DNA from: a virus
Taxonomy: Duplodnaviria > Caudoviricetes
Direction: 5' to 3' (one strand)
IMG/VR virus record: IMGVR_UViG_3300008110_000439
Span: 1-51,557 of that record
DNA length: 51,557 nucleotides
Position numbers and translations under genes: made by a program
Notes under the pieces: model-generated
What the model was told of the DNA's origin: nothing
Databases searched by the model: none
Seen by the model: only the letters and a program-made list of their open reading frames with translations
Shown: positions 3,337-41,350 of the stretch, piece by piece
Layout of the letters: each line of letters begins with the position of its first letter
Numbering within the stretch: position 1 is the first letter of the stretch

Positions 3337-4059
3337 TTAGCCCATCGCATCCCTTAGGGCCTGGGTTAGGAGCGTGGGCAGTAGGCGGTCTGACGTGGCC
3401 TTGGTGCGGCCGTAGAAGTCGAAGATGGTGGGTACGGTGGGTTCCTTGGTGGTGAGGCGGAAGAGTAAGTCGAGTTTTCTGTTCTTGACTTGGTAGATGC
3501 CGTTGGACAGGTGGTTGGCGCGTCTGGAGGGCTTGCGGCGGTCGGGGACAGAGAAATAACGCGGGGCGTTTTTGCCGGAGCCCATACCGGTGTCGCTTTT
3601 GAGGGCAGTTAGCACTTGCTGGTACTGTCCGCGGGACATGTTTCCCTGGATGAGCCGTACCCCACGGCCTTTTAGGAAAGGGATGGCGTACATCGAAGGG
3701 TCGATGATGCCGTTCTTGCGTAGGGCGCGTGTGAAGCGGGTGATGTACGCAGGCTTACCGCCGGTGCCGTCCTCGGTGCTGACTGGATAGAGGTAACGCG
3801 CAGGATCCTGACCATCGGGACCGTCAGTGCTGATGCTTATACGCAGCTCTAGGCCGTCTGCGGCGTAGCGAGGGGAGCGCAGGGTGAACTGCACTGGATT
3901 AGCGAACTGCTCGCCCATGTACTGGGCAAGGTCTTTGCGCAGCTCGAAGCCCAGCTTCTGCATGCTGCGCTTGCCGGCGTAGGGCAGCTGCACCGACTGC
4001 AGCGCCGTGACGTAGCCGATAAGTTGGTCGGCCTGGAAGGTGATGGACTGGTTGGCCAT
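3337..4059 (-). CDS. phage protein, possibly of the virion morphogenesis/neck family
   Basis: 240-aa basic ORF; QLPYA...F.NPVQFT...FDFY pattern resembles a family usually found beside terminase genes. Confidence 0.5.
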   Translation of the reverse strand: MANQSITFQADQLIGYVTALQSVQLPYAGKRSMQKLGFELRKDLAQYMGEQFANPVQFTLRSPRYAADGLELRISISTDGPDGQDPARYLYPVSTEDGTGGKPAYITRFTRALRKNGIIDPSMYAIPFLKGRGVRLIQGNMSRGQYQQVLTALKSDTGMGSGKNAPRYFSVPDRRKPSRRANHLSNGIYQVKNRKLDLLFRLTTKEPTVPTIFDFYGRTKATSDRLLPTLLTQALRDAMG

Positions 4060-9851: not shown

Positions 9852-11702
9852 ATGGACGTACTTTTTGGTATTGAGCACATTAACTGTTTGGATAGAGCAG
9901 AGGTAGTTGCATTCGACGTTGAGACCACTGGTCTAGTTCCCGTGGTAGGGGGTCTAAGGCTTTTGCAACTCACTGCTGCCGACAAGCCGGTGGTGGTTTT
10001 GGATATGTGGGAGTTAGTTAAAGAAGAGTGGGAGAGCCTGCGTAAGTGGTGCTTAGAGCGGGAGCGTGTGTGGGTTGCGCACAACGCGGTGTTCGACTTG
10101 GGGTGGTTACAGGAGCACCGCATCGAGCTGAATGGTGCTGTTCATTGCACCATGCTTGCTTCGCGGCTTACCTCTAATGGGACCCCAAACCTGCGTCACG
10201 GTCTAGCTCCAGTGCTGGAACGCCACATGGGTTTGACTATTAGTAAGGAAGAGCAACGATCAGACTGGAGCGCACCGTTGCTTAGCGAGTCGCAGCTTAC
10301 CTATGCAGCACGCGATGTTTATGAGCTAATTAGGCTGTACCCGCTGCTTATGAAGAAGCTTGAGAAGGGGAAGTTGTTGCGCGCTTTTGATATGGAGTGT
10401 GCCGCGCTGCCCGTACTCGCTCATATGCAGAGGAGCGGGCTGCCGTTTAGTAGGCAAAAGCTTGAAGAGCTTCAGGCTTATTACGAGGAGCGGATTGAGA
10501 CGCTGGGCAAAGACTTTGTTGAGCAGCTTGATTCCGCTCTGCCTGAAGAAGGGAAGTTGCCACGCGATCCTGATGGTACCTTTAACTTAAGGGCTAAGGC
10601 GGAAGGTAGTATTCGGGCTGGCACTAAAGTTGCAGCGGGGTTTAACCTCAACTCGCCTAAGCAGTTGGTTGATAAGTTTACGCTTTTATTAGGTGAGGCG
10701 CCATTAGATGAGAAGACGGGCAAGAAGAGTGTTTCTGTTAGTGCTCTTAGGGCTTACGCAGCCGATCATGTCGTTGTGCAGACGTACCTGGGCTGGAAGA
10801 AAGCAGAAAAGCGGAGGCAGATGGTAGTAGCACTTATGGAGCATCAACATGCAGATGGTTTTATTCGTGCTAGCTACATGCAGTTGGGTGCTGATACTGG
10901 CAGGATGTCTTGCCGTAACCCGAACCTTCAGCAAGTACCGAGAGACAAAGGTTTTAGGGCTGCAGCTGAGGCGCCCGAGGGATGGTCTTTTGTTGTCGCT
11001 GACTTTGGTCAGATGGAGTTACGTCTGGCCGCTGCGGTATCTATGGATAAGCGGATGATCGCGGCATTTAAGGACGGGGAGGATCTCCACACAATTACAG
11101 CTGCGGCTATTTATCCAGAAGCCACAGAAGATCCCGCTGAGATGAAGTTGCGCAGACAGGTTGCTAAGTCGGCAAACTTTGGTTTGTTGTACGGCTCAGG
11201 TGCAAAAGGCTTGCGTGCTTACGCGGGTGCTATGGGTATAACAATGACTTTGGATGAAGCGGATGCAATTCGCAGCACATTCCGCAATACTTACTGTGGG
11301 ATTGCTGATTGGCAGAGCCTAAATGCGGACGAGGCAAATCGCACCTACGGTGATAAATGGGCTGAGGTAAGGGTTCCTGGTAGTGAGCTTCGGCGGTATT
11401 TGCCAGGAGAGCTCAACCGCCTGACCACGCGGTGTAACACACCGATTCAAGGGGCTGGTGCTGCTGTGCTGAAAGTTGCCCTGGCTGAGTTGTGGCCCCA
11501 CTTGCGTCAAGCGGGTGAAGACACAGTGCAATTAGCAGCTGTAATCCATGATGAGGTGGTCCTATTAGTACGCGAGGGGCTGGAAGAACAATGGGCCAAG
11601 CTACTTAGTGGTGTGATGGAGAAGGCCGAAGCCAAATGGCTGGGCGATATTCCGCCCTTAGCTGAGGCGGCTTGGGGTAAGACGTGGGCCGACGCTAAGT
11701 AG
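9852..11702 (+). CDS. polA: DNA polymerase family A with 3'-5' exonuclease
   Basis: ExoI FDVETTG, ExoII HNAVFD, ExoIII YAARD; TGRMSCRNPNLQQ; motif A DFGQMELR; motif B KSANFGLLYG; motif C HDE. Confidence 0.95.
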   Translation: MDVLFGIEHINCLDRAEVVAFDVETTGLVPVVGGLRLLQLTAADKPVVVLDMWELVKEEWESLRKWCLERERVWVAHNAVFDLGWLQEHRIELNGAVHCTMLASRLTSNGTPNLRHGLAPVLERHMGLTISKEEQRSDWSAPLLSESQLTYAARDVYELIRLYPLLMKKLEKGKLLRAFDMECAALPVLAHMQRSGLPFSRQKLEELQAYYEERIETLGKDFVEQLDSALPEEGKLPRDPDGTFNLRAKAEGSIRAGTKVAAGFNLNSPKQLVDKFTLLLGEAPLDEKTGKKSVSVSALRAYAADHVVVQTYLGWKKAEKRRQMVVALMEHQHADGFIRASYMQLGADTGRMSCRNPNLQQVPRDKGFRAAAEAPEGWSFVVADFGQMELRLAAAVSMDKRMIAAFKDGEDLHTITAAAIYPEATEDPAEMKLRRQVAKSANFGLLYGSGAKGLRAYAGAMGITMTLDEADAIRSTFRNTYCGIADWQSLNADEANRTYGDKWAEVRVPGSELRRYLPGELNRLTTRCNTPIQGAGAAVLKVALAELWPHLRQAGEDTVQLAAVIHDEVVLLVREGLEEQWAKLLSGVMEKAEAKWLGDIPPLAEAAWGKTWADAK

Positions 11703-11740
11703 CGCTGCTGTGTTGGTGTCCCTTATGGTGACGCAACTTA

Positions 11741-11956
11741 GTGGCGCAGGTTGTGGGTCTTACGGGTAGGCAGCTTGTGGTGTCGTGGTTACACGAAGAG
11801 ATCAAGCAGGCCACCACGGCAGACCTGCAGCGAGCAGCACAGTTCCTTGAGTGGGCTAGAGACGTGCGTAAGGGATGCGCTAAGCAGCGGGGTAAGGCGC
11901 GGCGCAGTCAGGCTGAGGGGTGGCGTAAGTACGTTGACTCCTCGGTTACTTGGTAA
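11741..11956 (+). CDS. hypothetical protein
   Basis: 71-aa ORF following polA. Confidence 0.6.
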   Translation: MAQVVGLTGRQLVVSWLHEEIKQATTADLQRAAQFLEWARDVRKGCAKQRGKARRSQAEGWRKYVDSSVTW

Positions 11957-11973
11957 ATCGCGCCACCGGGTCC

Positions 11974-12002
11974 TTGGCAGCATCTCCACATAGTGCTACA
12001 CT
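11974..12002 (+). promoter_or_regulatory. putative sigma70-type promoter
   Basis: TTGGCA-17 bp-TACACT; shares TAGTGCTACA with the promoter at 3290. Confidence 0.5.
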
Positions 12003-12026
12003 GTTAGGGCACATCCGAGGGAACCT

Positions 12027-12272
12027 ATGTTCCACGGCCAGAAGCGCTACTACCAAGTCCTGCTAGATCCAGCACGAGCTGAACTACTCGATGCCTTAGC
12101 GGAGGATCGGGGGATGCGCCCCTCGGCACTACTTCGCAAGATCGCCTACGAGGCCCTTGAGCAGGCCTTTCCACCGTCGCTGTACGCCTTAGCTACAACA
12201 CAAGATGAGGCGTCTCGGTTGACATCGATCCGCAACCAAGTAGAAGGTAGACGTAAGCCTAAGTCGCAATGA
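12027..12272 (+). CDS. ribbon-helix-helix DNA-binding protein (putative)
   Basis: YYQVLLD...LDALAE..GM.PSALLR.I. Confidence 0.65.
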   Translation: MFHGQKRYYQVLLDPARAELLDALAEDRGMRPSALLRKIAYEALEQAFPPSLYALATTQDEASRLTSIRNQVEGRRKPKSQ

Positions 12273-12358
12273 CTGTTTACCAACTCCTGGAATTCCTGCT
12301 TATGTACATGGTGCTATGCAGTGTAGCACTAATTATTGCATCTAAAGTTTTACCTTGA
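12269..12358 (+). CDS. 29-aa membrane micropeptide, copy 1
   Basis: MTVYQLLEFLLMYMVLCSVALIIASKVLP; ATGA/TGATG coupling at both ends; paralogue at 15710. Confidence 0.7.
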   Translation: MTVYQLLEFLLMYMVLCSVALIIASKVLP

Positions 12359-12636
12359 TGGCCTATTTTAAAAGCTCCCTTAGTGAAAAGGACTTCTATT
12401 TGTCCTTAGCTAATCGGCCTCGCAAGGCCGGTGTAAGCAGTGCATTTAGAGGTGTTTCTCGCATTTCACGCTCTCCCGACAAATGGAGGGCAGGTCTGAC
12501 TTACAAGGGCCGGCGCTATTACTTGGGGTCCCACGACACCGAGATAGAAGCTGCTAAGGCTTACAACAAAGCTGCCCTAGCCATTATCGGCGACCACGCT
12601 GTAATTAACCCCTTACCTGAACCTGCCGATGCCTGA
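12358..12636 (+). CDS. stand-alone AP2-domain DNA-binding protein
   Basis: SSAFRGVS...KWRA.L...GRRYYLGSH.TE.EAAKAYNKAA. Confidence 0.85.
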   Translation: MAYFKSSLSEKDFYLSLANRPRKAGVSSAFRGVSRISRSPDKWRAGLTYKGRRYYLGSHDTEIEAAKAYNKAALAIIGDHAVINPLPEPADA

Positions 12637-12865
12637 TCAACAAACATTAAATGAACAGCCAGCCGAAACGTTTATAACGGGGTACCTCGTCTATCAAGTT
12701 GGTTGTATCGAATGCGGAGTTAGTTCTTACCCGATAAAAGTTTGTGCAACTATCGAAGAAGCAGAGCAAGTAAAAAAGTCTCACCCAAACACGTGGGACA
12801 CAGAAGGCGGCGATGGTTACGTCACTATTATCAATCTTCAAACTTGCACAACAGAATACAAATGA
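12629..12865 (+). CDS. hypothetical protein (CxxC)
   Basis: 78-aa ORF, GCIECGVSS, overlaps neighbours. Confidence 0.65.
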   Translation: MPDQQTLNEQPAETFITGYLVYQVGCIECGVSSYPIKVCATIEEAEQVKKSHPNTWDTEGGDGYVTIINLQTCTTEYK

Positions 12866-13584
12866 CCACTTACAAGGCAACAAGTGATCAGTGGGCGTAC
12901 CAGGACCACTGGGCTAAGGAGGACGGGGATGCTGCCTGCTTACTTGAGTTGCGTTCCAGGGTCGAACAACTGGAAGCCAACACCAAGCAGTGGCGCACAG
13001 ATCACCTCCGCCTCGCCAACACATGCGCCTCGCTGGCCCCAGATCGCCTGAGCTTCTTTGACGCCCTGCTGCCAGACGACGAGGACTCCCAGCCAACTCC
13101 TAATTCACTCCCAATTAGGAGTTCGCTAGTGGAGCGGGTACACAGCTGCATCGTTGGCGAACCGGAATGCATCCTCGAGCTTCGCGCCAGGGTGGAGACG
13201 TTGGAAGGTGCTGCTCACAAGCACATCGTTGAAACCAGCGCCAACATTTTGGCCTTGGCCAGTCGGGTCGAGTCGCTGGAAGCTGCCGAGCGCCCAGCAT
13301 CAAAGGTCTATGAAATCAGCAAGCCGCTGAAACTCACTGCAAAGCAGCAAAAAGAGTTAAACGCACTGCTGCAACCCAACTCCAAGCCAACTCCTAATCC
13401 AAGCCAAATTAGGAGTTCGCTGGTGGAGCGGGTGCAAGCGGCGATCAATGACGTGGAGTTTCCTCATAGCAACGATGAGGCCCGCGCCGCGATCCACGAG
13501 GTGGCGATGTGGATGACCAGCAACCCCGATGTGTATTTTCCGCCTGCGCTTGTCTTTGCGCTTGAGCAGGAGGCCGAGCGATGA
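12862..13584 (+). CDS. modular repeat protein, hypothetical
   Basis: Start coupled to the upstream stop (ATGA); repeats (C)LLELRSRVE.LE x3 and S.PTPN...IRSSLVERV x2. Confidence 0.7.
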   Translation: MTTYKATSDQWAYQDHWAKEDGDAACLLELRSRVEQLEANTKQWRTDHLRLANTCASLAPDRLSFFDALLPDDEDSQPTPNSLPIRSSLVERVHSCIVGEPECILELRARVETLEGAAHKHIVETSANILALASRVESLEAAERPASKVYEISKPLKLTAKQQKELNALLQPNSKPTPNPSQIRSSLVERVQAAINDVEFPHSNDEARAAIHEVAMWMTSNPDVYFPPALVFALEQEAER

Positions 13585-13796
13585 CCGACATCACCCGCTA
13601 CAAGCTCGACGCTGCGTTCGCATCCCTGCGCACGTTCGACCACCTCGCCAAGCCCGATGACTTCATCGAAGTGTCGCTATGGCACAACGGTGAAGGCTTT
13701 GATGCTCACCTGAGCAGTCATGCCGAACAGTGCATCAGGCTCTCGTGGGGAGAGTTCAAGGCCCTGAAGAAACTTGTTAAGGAGCTGGATCAGTGA
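13581..13796 (+). CDS. hypothetical protein
   Basis: 71 aa, FIEVSLWHNGEGFD, ATGA-coupled. Confidence 0.7.
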   Translation: MTDITRYKLDAAFASLRTFDHLAKPDDFIEVSLWHNGEGFDAHLSSHAEQCIRLSWGEFKALKKLVKELDQ

Positions 13797-14068
13797 CACG
13801 CCTTATTTCCCCGCCCGCTGCAGTCATCCGCCAATGGGAAGCCGAATGGGACACCAACGGCGCCGCCCATTGCGACAAAGCCCTCTACATCGCCGCTAAG
13901 GCTGCAACCTGGAGCGCGAAGGCTGCCATTGAGTGCGCCCTGAAGGACACTGCCTCATGTCATTGGCGTGTTGCCGATGGCCCCGAAGATGGAGTGCAGC
14001 TTGTGCGAGCCAGTGATCTGGTGGCTTGGGCTGCTGCCATTGGCAAGCGTTACGAGGTTGAAGAATGA
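13793..14068 (+). CDS. hypothetical protein with PPxxVIxQW module
   Basis: ISPPAAVIRQW...IAAKAATW resembles the N-terminus of the next two paralogues. Confidence 0.65.
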   Translation: MTRLISPPAAVIRQWEAEWDTNGAAHCDKALYIAAKAATWSAKAAIECALKDTASCHWRVADGPEDGVQLVRASDLVAWAAAIGKRYEVEE

Positions 14069-14430
14069 CTGCCATCACCCCACCGCCGGAGCTGGTGCAG
14101 CAGTGGATGGAAGAGCTATACGGCGGTCCAGTTTCTGTGATTAGCCCGTTTGATCAACGCGTCCTTATAGCTGCCGCCCAATGGGGCGCGGACCAGCAAC
14201 TTGCAGAGGATGCAAAATGGCTGGATCACAATGCTCTAAATGAACCGCATCTGCGGATCACTCCAGTAGGTGAATCGTTAAAAGAAGCAATGCGCCCCAA
14301 GCCACCGAGCTTGAAGGAGCAGGTGCAACAGGCGTTGGGCCGGTTCAACGCCAATGCTCATACAAGTGCTGACGAAATGGTGAACGACTTCGGCACCATC
14401 CGCCGCGCCCTGGAGGCACTTCCCGAATGA
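14065..14430 (+). CDS. hypothetical protein, ITPPPELV family paralogue 1
   Basis: ITPPPELVQQW...AAQWGADQ...RPKPPSLKEQ...TIRRALEALPE. Confidence 0.75.
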   Translation: MTAITPPPELVQQWMEELYGGPVSVISPFDQRVLIAAAQWGADQQLAEDAKWLDHNALNEPHLRITPVGESLKEAMRPKPPSLKEQVQQALGRFNANAHTSADEMVNDFGTIRRALEALPE

Positions 14431-14519
14431 CTGAGTCGCTGGATAAGGTTGACTCCTTGCTGTGTCTGATCTTCTTCTTTGGTTTCCTTGTTGGCTTATT
14501 TGTAGGTAGCATCCGATGA
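14427..14519 (+). CDS. 30-aa membrane micropeptide
   Basis: MTESLDKVDSLLCLIFFFGFLVGLFVGSIR; ATGA-coupled at both ends. Confidence 0.65.
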   Translation: MTESLDKVDSLLCLIFFFGFLVGLFVGSIR

Positions 14520-14893
14520 CTGACCACCCGATCACTCCGCCGCCAGAGCTGGTGGGCGAGTGGCTGTGCGACGACGGCTACCCCTGGGATCCGTCTGAAC
14601 AGGTCACGATCACGATCACTACCAACCGACTACGCAATGTCGCCACCCAAGCCGCCCGCTGGGGGAGCGACCAGGAGCTGGAGGCGTGCGGCGCGTACCT
14701 AGAACGTTGTGCGCAATGGGAACCGGAGGACATTGACGAACTCCGCGCCGCCCGCCGCCCCAAGCCGCCGAGCCTGAAGGAGCAGGCGCTTGCTGCGCTT
14801 CCCAAAAGGCTTGACAACGGCTTTATGACAACAGTCAACGACGAGGAACTCGACACCATCCGCCTCGCCCTGGAGGCACTGCCCGATGACTGA
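14516..14893 (+). CDS. hypothetical protein, ITPPPELV family paralogue 2
   Basis: ITPPPELVGEW...AARWGSDQ...RPKPPSLKEQ...TIRLALEALPD. Confidence 0.75.
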   Translation: MTDHPITPPPELVGEWLCDDGYPWDPSEQVTITITTNRLRNVATQAARWGSDQELEACGAYLERCAQWEPEDIDELRAARRPKPPSLKEQALAALPKRLDNGFMTTVNDEELDTIRLALEALPDD

Positions 14894-15029
14894 TCAACAA
14901 CTGTTTCTCCTTTGCGGAACAATTGCTCTTTGCGCAGGTTCAATTGCAAATTCACTTGGCCTAGCAATTTTCGCAATTGCCTGCTTCCTTGCCTTTCTCG
15001 CTCTTTTGTATAAGCAGATCGTTGACTGA
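14886..15029 (+). CDS. 47-aa membrane peptide
   Basis: MTDQQLFLLCGTIALCAGSIANSLGLAIFAIACFLAFLALLYKQIVD fills the gap exactly. Confidence 0.6.
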   Translation: MTDQQLFLLCGTIALCAGSIANSLGLAIFAIACFLAFLALLYKQIVD

Positions 15030-20845: not shown

Positions 20846-21043
20846 GTGCCAGACGATGCAATTGATTGTGGTGATGGGTTCTATATAGAGCAGAGTACGG
20901 AACCGTGCGGAGAACCTAGGTACAGGAGTTGTAGTCCTGGTGGTGCAATAGGTCGGTATTCCAATGACTTATGGCAGGCTCAGATCTATATCGAGCATCT
21001 GAAGGGGAATCTACCGGGCGGATCCAGTCATATAACCGCTTAG
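20846..21043 (+). CDS. hypothetical protein
   Basis: GFYIE...RYRSC.PGG..RYSNDLWQA. Confidence 0.55.
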   Translation: MPDDAIDCGDGFYIEQSTEPCGEPRYRSCSPGGAIGRYSNDLWQAQIYIEHLKGNLPGGSSHITA

Positions 21044-21311
21044 CGCGAATGAGATCCCAATGAAGTTGGGACATCCACCAAAGCCATACAGGTGAGTGCG
21101 CTTTACTGATGTTGCAATCGAGGCAGGCTGGAACGCAATTTTCCGGTGATGTGGCTCCGCCCTTTGCCTTAGGCCTTACGTGATCGATGGTTGTGGCGTA
21201 GGTGCCACAGTAGGCACAGGTATGGTCCCAAGCGGAGAAGATTGAGGCTCTGAACTTTTGCCTAGTGGCTTTTTTGCTAAGCAGATGCGTGCCATCAATC
21301 TGATGCTCCAT
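20916..21311 (-). CDS. HNH endonuclease (McrA-like, zinc-binding)
   Basis: CAYCG...TIDHVRPKAKGG....NCVPACLDCNISK. Confidence 0.85.
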   Translation of the reverse strand: MEHQIDGTHLLSKKATRQKFRASIFSAWDHTCAYCGTYATTIDHVRPKAKGGATSPENCVPACLDCNISKAHSPVWLWWMSQLHWDLIRAKRLYDWIRPVDSPSDARYRSEPAISHWNTDLLHHQDYNSCT

Positions 21312-41282: not shown

Positions 41283-41314
41283 AAAAAGCCACTAAGCGGT
41301 GAAGCTTAGTGGCT
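41283..41314 (-). terminator. Rho-independent terminator after the tail tube gene
   Basis: AGCCACTAAGC-N6-GCTTAGTGGCT hairpin with an A-run on the plus side. Confidence 0.7.
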
Positions 41315-41350
41315 AAGTGGCGTGGGGTCTAAGTGGCGTTTAAGCGCGGC

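Follow-up and report, generated by a model that had tools for sequence, protein, structure and literature searches.

The 51,557-nucleotide stretch analysed here, referred to as the window (IMG/VR record IMGVR_UViG_3300008110_000439; Duplodnaviria, Caudoviricetes), is an entire assembly of one contig and represents a lambda-like tailed phage genome, in which an open reading frame (ORF) of 240 amino acids carries two copies of a short palindromic cassette. This cassette is translated in frame as part of the protein and recurs at the joints of exchangeable modules in many metagenomic phage contigs. The ORF gave no match to any Pfam, PHROG or NCBIfam family. An earlier note on this DNA, based on its letters alone, had described two cruciform-type sites inside a coding repeat and suggested that they might serve as recombination sites for module shuffling or, alternatively, as operators.

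A translated palindrome in two copies

The core of the cassette is a dyad of the form AACTCCTAAT-N9-ATTAGGAGTT, whose 10-nucleotide arms are exact in both copies (13095-13123 and 13389-13417) and whose spacers, TCACTCCCA in copy 1 and CCAAGCCAA in copy 2, are unlike at 4 of 9 positions, which confirms both of the sites that had been noted, with their identical arms and differing spacers. An outer AGC-C / C-GCT extends the arms to 13091-13127 and 13385-13421 (15-nucleotide arms, 93% complementary), copy 2 lies inside a longer imperfect palindrome at 13370-13436 (29-nucleotide arms, 72% complementary), and the two copies form part of a direct repeat of 58 nucleotides at 88% identity, 294 nucleotides apart. 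No further arm-N9-arm match exists in the window with three mismatches permitted, and none of 100 dinucleotide shuffles gave two matches to the arm pattern.

Both dyads stand in frame within the ORF, where ACT CCT AAT (TPN) and ATT AGG AGT (IRS) are reverse-complement codons, so that the peptide repeat PTPN...IRSS follows from the DNA dyad, as had been proposed. The cassette unit of about 45 nucleotides comprises AAC TCC AAG CCA, the left arm, NNNNNCCAA, the right arm and CG, and encodes NSKPTPN-xxx-IRSS (Table 1). Conservation exceeds the arms, running from AAC TCC AAG CC through both of them to CG and including the CCAA with which the spacer ends.

One perfect 10-bp inverted repeat would be no surprise in a sequence of 51.5 kb: simulations gave a mean of 1.1 with loops of 3-20 nucleotides, as against five overlapping hits in the window, which fall at three places, namely both cassette copies and position 41287. 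The dyad goes beyond chance because it is repeated, has extended arms and recurs in other contigs. At the third place, 41287-41316, is the genome's only short-loop perfect inverted repeat of 10 bp or more outside the cassettes (11-bp arms, 6-nucleotide loop); it is flanked by the genes for the tail assembly chaperone and the tail tube.

Table 1. Features of the cassette gene and its neighbourhood, in window coordinates
Feature	Position	Strand	Description
Stand-alone AP2-domain ORF, 93 amino acids, without HNH domain	12355..12636	+	upstream of the cassette gene
ORF with both cassettes, 240 amino acids	12862..13584	+	module A, cassette 1, middle B-type module, cassette 2, module C
Cassette copy 1	13084..13125	+	peptide DSQPTPNSLPIRSS; left arm 13095-13104, spacer 13105-13113, right arm 13114-13123
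Inter-cassette segment	13126..13377	+	C-type start (LVERVHSCIVGEPEC), then B-type coiled-coil module; missing in relatives P0116 and P0035
In-frame GTG	13129..13131	+	7 nucleotides past AGGAG of right arm 1; copy 2 equivalent 13423-13425; candidate internal start
Cassette copy 2, consensus form	13378..13419	+	peptide NSKPTPNPSQIRSS; left arm 13389-13398, spacer 13399-13407, right arm 13408-13417
Three paralogous phrog_32006 genes (ITPPPELVQQW module)	13793-14068, 14065-14430, 14516-14893	+	ATG start, without cassette

Spread of the cassette and its relatives

Exact arms with a spacer of 3-20 nucleotides occur in at least 80 IMG/VR contigs, and among the matches listed, loci L001-L080, there are 67 exact copies with a 9-nucleotide spacer. 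With up to three arm mismatches allowed, 99 instances yielded 57 distinct in-frame family contexts after removal of duplicates, all in a single frame and a single orientation within a collecting filter that scored one reading frame only and favoured CC or TC before the left arm; the second frame is also open. Relatives of the 240-residue protein number 789 at E<=1e-3 among 3701 candidates, most of them about 165 residues long and covering 40-62% of the query. Among 50,697 records of deposited phages, no match to the protein was found and the best matches to the cassette DNA had E>=0.5. In bacterial genomes the exact dyad occurs in 18 stretches, only one of which, on a contig of a Synechococcus metagenome-assembled genome (L114), has the family context, the remainder being AT-rich intergenic hairpins. 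A literature search, with supplementary files outside its range, returned no publication on this cassette. In all, one translated palindromic cassette of about 45 nucleotides is common to well over a hundred metagenomic phage contigs. The sequencing runs holding parts of the locus are mostly labelled freshwater, and the large terminase has its nearest cultured relative in Synechococcus phage S-LBS1, at 45% identity; the cassette family belongs to small early proteins of uncultured freshwater phages, whose hosts are probably picocyanobacteria.

Module joints and breakpoints

The modules of the family comprise A, ending ...LANTCASLAPDRLKFFNALLPDD; B, a coiled coil ending ...ISKPLKLT..LL; several C types, SLVERV...EARAAIREVAAW with differing tails; and the ITPPPELVQQW module of phrog_32006, which in other contigs follows the cassette. 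The cassette is placed either between modules or at the extreme N-terminus of single-module genes, as in L062, a gene of 73 amino acids starting MTNSQPTPNPVPIRSS. The relatives P0116 and P0035 have the order A-cassette-C and thus equal the window protein minus its inter-cassette stretch. Across 73 flank contexts, a few of them spurious, about 20 upstream and 24 downstream classes are joined in 40 combinations and with 27 spacers, seven upstream classes being paired with more than one downstream class. Where two contexts are alike on at least one side of the cassette, the other side is unlike in 61 of 70 pairs. L011 and L045, for instance, match as far as the left arm and are unrelated past the right arm, L081 and L014 are 99-100% identical from 11 nucleotides before the left arm onward and unrelated upstream, and these pairs together with L020/L037 show 90-100% identity to and through the cassette with unrelated sequence beyond.

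Mosaic breakpoints at the site, which the earlier note had named as something to look for, are enriched. In 68 non-redundant segments, 60 of 226 internal ends of alignments with at least 88% identity (27%) fall within 40 nucleotides of the cassette centre, against 6.7% expected, an approximately four-fold enrichment at the cassette edges. As in module shuffling at conserved islands, the cassette is a short conserved stretch that separates variable segments and has exchange points at it. The notion of an in-frame site for exchanging protein modules is borne out as far as the position of the cassette at joints and the absence of the inter-cassette segment from P0116 and P0035 are concerned, while a dedicated recombinase mechanism for it is not. 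Additionally, some contigs of sequencing run X2 span no more than about 13365-13434 and have loose ends that are unlike on either side, and exact contigs in runs X2 and X3 end at 13094, the pattern that a sequence common to many genomic contexts produces in an assembly graph. No family spacer is present as its reverse complement in the coding orientation.

Several joints and islands in the same genes deserve separate mention. At 13126-13170 the middle module of the window protein opens with LVERVHSCIVGEPEC, the start of the C-type domain in L085 (1501-1905), and continues as B-type coiled coil, a joint that carries no cassette. At 14075-14107 a 33-nucleotide stretch encoding ITPPPELVQQW is exact, synonymous sites included, in 18 of 140 loci (L004, L013, L014, L020 and 14 others), making it a second island conserved as DNA, which is not palindromic and marks where another module begins at its 5' edge. 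In L071 (12113-12243) a family-type cassette closes an ORF (…TSKPTPNFLQIRS, then a stop), with an ARAGORN-predicted tRNA 31 nucleotides on (12173-12243); the downstream module there seems to have been replaced by non-coding DNA.

Covariation and constraint on the dyad

Three samples not selected for the arms were used to examine whether the dyad is maintained. The 22 loci found via modules A and B comprise 5 perfect dyads, 13 with one to three changes, 3 decayed copies (L091-L093) and 1 without any (L085); a codon-degenerate scan for PTPN-xxx-IRSSLVE gave 19 stretches, 16 of them perfect and 3 with synonymous changes that are uncompensated; and a flank-anchored metagenome scan gave 17, of which 8 are perfect and 9 carry one to four changes. 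Over the 18-pair structure, 91.0% of the cells in 36 distinct rows pair, compared with 91.2% in shuffles, double changes affect 1 pair (L140) where 1.8 are expected, and the covariation score is 0.067 versus 0.076. Transitions that keep a G-U pair are of six kinds, against three kinds that break pairing, a difference that is not significant. No selection for arm complementarity is detectable. Compensatory arm changes among homologues, which the earlier note had suggested seeking, thus do not exceed those in shuffles, and with arm variants uncompensated and pairing equal to shuffles, the idea of a conserved cruciform or recombinase core is not sustained. Homologues with a similar peptide and lost symmetry do occur (L091-L093, L103, L104), which is half of what the earlier note had thought would count against its proposal; the other half, a lack of breakpoint enrichment, was not found.

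At third codon positions, identity in the 17 unbiased rows is 0.96 for the left arm, 0.88 for the right arm, 0.92 for the upstream flank and 0.62 for the adjacent SLVERV codons. In 11 full-length B-type genes, the cassette has amino-acid identities of 0.49-0.69, with 0.71-0.78 at codon positions 1 and 2 and 0.70-0.80 at position 3; the corresponding values for ASKVY and RAAIR, which are conserved as peptides, are 0.96-1.00, 0.98-1.00 and 0.70-0.72, and the variable segments of these genes reach 0.3-0.45 at position 3. On these figures the cassette resembles a linker under weak constraint, its DNA appearing about as alike as the synonymous sites of conserved islands, while the segments on either side of it are unrelated. 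Such a picture is what one would expect if recombination at shared islands had replaced the variable segments; it is compatible with selection for a hairpin without requiring it.

Structure prediction for the window protein with AlphaFold2 (mean predicted local distance difference test, pLDDT, of 65) gave helices interrupted by a low-confidence non-helical coil at residues 69-87 and 171-179, and the predicted coil takes in the initial part of each cassette together with the residues that immediately precede it. As RNA, both copies fold stably (copy 1 at -22.4 kcal/mol, z -2.6; copy 2 at -31.3 kcal/mol, z -5.3). No Rfam match was obtained up to E=10, and a scan of 11700-15000 detected no promoter- or terminator-like site at the cassettes, the sole promoter-like site lying at 11974 and none within 12900-13500.

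Gene-junction occurrences and probable origin

In unrelated contigs and genomes the same dyad is found at gene ends (L027, L063, L019, L048, L044, L119). In this junction form the upstream ORF ends AAC TCC TAA within the left arm, while the right arm or a second copy supplies a Shine-Dalgarno (SD) sequence that is followed by a start codon; in L119 the ATG of a 439-codon ORF stands 5 nucleotides after the SD sequence. The family cassette is read one base further on, which puts TAA and TAG out of frame and turns the hairpin into TPN...IRS. From this correspondence we infer that the ancestor of the cassette was most likely a hairpin at a stop/SD junction, which became fused into reading frames.

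A GTG lies 7 nucleotides past AGGAG in both window copies and in 15 of the 19 copies from the codon-degenerate scan; among 20 rows not selected for that codon, 5 have GTT or GTA instead. An internal start at this GTG was considered and dropped, as the codon drifts like any valine codon and is missing in other contexts.

Four AT-rich viral contigs (L006 at 387, L044 at 9380, L048 at 10764 and L078 at 716) share an intergenic block with the same dyad, in the order dyad, second TTAGGAG, a tiny ORF (ATGACCACCTCCTAG) holding the anti-SD-like CACCTCCT, a GC stem with a T run, and TATAAT. This block resembles a terminator-promoter junction cassette.

Comparison with known systems

The closest known systems are the motif exchanges of T-even adhesins and the promoter early stem-loop (PeSL) cassettes. 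In T-even tail-fibre and gp38 adhesin genes, glycine-rich conserved motifs between hypervariable segments are reported to mediate intragenic module swapping (PMC3157838). A conserved motif at exchange joints is the shared trait, the joints here lying at the cassette edges. The glycine-rich motifs form a structural core and are conserved as peptide, whereas the cassette corresponds to low-confidence predicted coil with weak peptide constraint; moreover, the cassette is palindromic and also stands at the extreme N-terminus of single-module genes. PeSLs of T4-type phages are described as small repeated stem-loop cassettes among small non-essential genes, where recombination shuffles modules (PMC2839356). 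Repeated stem-loop cassettes and module shuffling are thus common to both, but PeSLs are intergenic and combine a sigma-70-like promoter with a terminator stem-loop, while the cassette is translated, keeps the frame and has no promoter- or terminator-like match. What sets the cassette apart from T-even adhesin motifs and PeSLs is that it is translated, palindromic and frame-keeping together.

Rickettsia palindromic elements and other in-frame MITE-like repeats are palindromic repeats of about 100-150 bp, present in many copies per genome, that insert into otherwise collinear conserved genes and are translated as part of the protein. The cassette shares their palindromic, translated nature but measures about 45 nucleotides, has two copies per genome, keeps to one frame and lies at module boundaries. 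SD-sequestering junction hairpins offer another likeness, with UAGGAG and its complement as arms, a stop in the left arm and a start after the right one in unrelated contigs; the family cassette differs in being read through in the +1 frame, with a start codon that is neither general nor conserved. With tyrosine-recombinase and attC sites it has in common the inverted arms round a variable centre and the position between exchangeable units, and it differs from them in the missing recombinase, the unequal 9-nucleotide spacer, the lack of the attC consensus and the in-frame location within ORFs.

Interpretation

The explanation to which we give roughly a 55% probability is that the cassette is a shared linker-coding island serving as short homology for module shuffling. 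It would encode a weakly constrained flexible linker where, in highly mosaic small early proteins, the interchangeable helical modules begin at their 5' edge, and would constitute one of a few short shared DNA islands available to general short-homology recombination, with co-infecting relatives and paralogous genes as the presumed partners; such recombination would swap, insert or delete modules with the reading frame kept. In agreement with this, the same genes contain other islands conserved as DNA, namely the ITPPPELVQQW stretch and RAAIREVAAW, the latter with third-position identity of 0.72-0.75 beside flanks at 0.3-0.45. The palindrome would then be an ancestral property, handed down from a junction hairpin with its stop codon in the left arm and its SD sequence in the right, and not itself kept by selection. 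The presence, frame and spread of the cassette, the mosaic joints, the lack of covariation, the absence of a recognised recombinase and the low-confidence predicted coil over the beginning of each cassette are results of the analysis, whereas homologous recombination as the mechanism and the origin from a junction hairpin are inferred. The analysis supports the cassette as a marker of where modules were shuffled and lends no support to a dedicated recombinase site or a maintained cruciform.

Several points weigh against this explanation. The breakpoint enrichment is moderate, because a control joint placed in the downstream flank is nearly as discordant as the site itself (62 of 79 discordant pairs downstream, 33 of 62 upstream). 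Every instance, moreover, was collected by way of the cassette, a choice that makes joints more likely to turn up at that place. The middle module of the window protein was joined at a non-cassette point, and this, like the existence of the other DNA-conserved islands, such as the ITPPPELVQQW one, speaks against a unique role for the cassette. That the arm third positions exceed the SLVERV codons could reflect selection at the nucleotide level rather than recent shared descent, and as a chance origin of an 18-pair palindrome is unlikely, the hairpin may have a present function. No recombinant was sighted directly in the assembled contigs, and the joint 13095->13389, corresponding to a 294-bp deletion, is absent from those of runs X1, X2, X3 and X5, which drop rare variants and are therefore uninformative either way; among the Logan contigs no run contained more than 56% of the sampled words. 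Furthermore, a PD-(D/E)XK exonuclease is the only recombination protein recognised in the genome.

Unlikely on our assessment is that the cassette is a linker at the peptide level alone, with a palindrome that is a frozen ancestral accident and a DNA likeness due to recent common descent. Uncompensated, near-neutral arm substitutions, perfect copies in just 5 of 22 and 8 of 17 members of two unbiased sets, the expectation of one 10-bp inverted repeat per genome by chance, and flank codons as fixed as arm codons (P = 5.7e-5 versus 5.8e-5 under genome codon usage) all agree with this reading; yet repeat-covered DNA makes up an estimated 0.2% or so of the genome, where a chance inverted repeat is unlikely, pairing reaches 18 pairs, the same dyad recurs at gene junctions elsewhere, and copies have unrelated sequences on their two sides, an arrangement that common descent could not produce unless recombination acted at the site. 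Improbable as well is a working mRNA hairpin, in which the SD sequence (UAGGAG) of the right arm would be held by the anti-SD-like left arm (CUCCUA), ribosomes translating the upstream module would open the hairpin, and a pause between modules or a GTG start would give both fused and separate modules. The stable folds, the recurrence of AGGAG-N7-GTG in both window copies and most SLVERV-type contexts, the service of the dyad as stop/SD junction or 5'-leader hairpin in unrelated contigs such as L119, and the less common codons of the arms (AGG 0.07 and AGT 0.14 of their synonymous sets) would suit such a device. Against it stand the absence of covariation, the non-significant excess of G-U-keeping changes, the drifting GTG, the ITPPPELV-type and LQLTPEQ-type contexts that have no ATG, GTG or TTG at that distance, the persistence of decayed copies in intact genes and the lack of an Rfam match.

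The remaining alternatives invoke a protein that recognises the site or an element that moves by itself. Least probable is a tyrosine-recombinase core, an integron-like attC or the operator of a dimeric regulator, as proposed in the earlier note on the strength of dyad symmetry around an asymmetric spacer, to which the location at module joints may be added. In tyrosine-recombinase cores the inverted arms flank an overlap of 6-8 bp, which partner sites share exactly; here the spacer has 9 nucleotides, is unequal between the two copies, occurs as 27 variants in 73 contexts and lacks a cognate recombinase, no integrase, recombinase or transposase family having been recognised among the 60 window ORFs (Pfam for all 60, PHROGs for 30), in keeping with the remark that none is visible. 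The attC core consensus is RYYYAAC ... GTTRRRY, outside which the flanks AGCCAAC and GTTCGCT fall; IntI is missing, and the sites lie in frame inside ORFs. As regards an operator, the dyad itself is present but lies within an ORF and has no promoter-like site nearby; small AP2 and ribbon-helix-helix-like ORFs are encoded upstream, and the arm variants are uncompensated. A dedicated in-frame recombination signal that is a functional counterpart of attC is doubtful: the hairpin would be extruded during replication or recombination and recognised by a phage or host enzyme, one candidate being the conserved AP2 protein whose gene closely precedes the cassette in some genomes, so that cassette-bounded modules would be excised, inserted and exchanged in frame at a high rate, with the variable first five loop bases setting which sites pair. 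Equally doubtful is that the cassette is the target of a nuclease or DNA-binding protein with specificity for its sequence or structure, such as a member of the HNH-AP2 homing-endonuclease lineage; breaks made there would be mended with a co-infecting genome as template, leaving mosaic joints. Nuclease genes at exchange boundaries between phages have been described (PMC10055350). The genome carries a complete HNH-AP2 gene (654-1178) as well as a further HNH gene (20916-21311), and in 16 of 18 loci having an AP2 homologue it lies at most about 450 nucleotides upstream of the cassette (L050 and L052 at 2-3 kb), the distance being 17 nucleotides in five (L004, L021, L055, L062, L066); however, only 2 of the 22 module-anchored loci have an AP2 gene within 1.5 kb, the adjacent AP2 protein has no nuclease domain, HNH homologues in the loci stand kilobases from cassettes, and genomes with these genes have the site intact. 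Very unlikely, finally, is a selfish in-frame palindromic mini-element in the manner of the Rickettsia elements. It would account for a palindrome that is translated, reads TPN...IRS on either strand and occurs in many different proteins, and some homologous modules have no cassette (L085 and the ITPPPELV genes of the window); but the 57 contexts share one frame and one orientation, with a filter that scored that frame only, no pair has both flanks alike and the cassette in one member only, there are two copies per genome, and no transposase was found among the 60 ORFs.

Phage modular evolution is usually described between genes, and to our knowledge defined DNA islands at in-frame protein joints are few, T-even adhesins being the main example. 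The cassette links about twenty kinds of upstream module to about twenty-four kinds of downstream module, in small early proteins that are otherwise uncharacterised. If it acts as a recombination handle, it would provide a testable system for the building of multi-domain phage proteins from a shared parts library, as well as a marker for finding such protein parts in metagenomes. The case also illustrates how a gene-junction hairpin could turn into a protein linker.

Genome context and neighbouring genes

Genes for structure and packaging include terminase gpA, a lambda-type portal, a capsid-protease fusion, tape measure and tail proteins L, M and J, and further genes encode a family-A DNA polymerase, a DUF3987 helicase, the PD-(D/E)XK exonuclease, a ligase domain, a dCTP deaminase, an endolysin and several HNH proteins. 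The ORF beside the exonuclease (3337-4059) gave no match to an annealing protein in PDB, Pfam or NCBIfam.

Close to the cassette gene, the 93-residue AP2 protein shows 53-62% identity to its homologues in 17 loci and 39% in an 18th match, and in several loci the AP2 stop overlaps the cassette-gene start (ATGA). Also upstream is a small ribbon-helix-helix-like ORF (12027-12272). Inspection by eye revealed a short unannotated frame in the interval separating the AP2 ORF from the cassette gene, at 12637-12864 (…CIECGVSSYPIKVCATIEE…TTEYK), which ends with ATGA across the cassette-gene start and may be a small gene.

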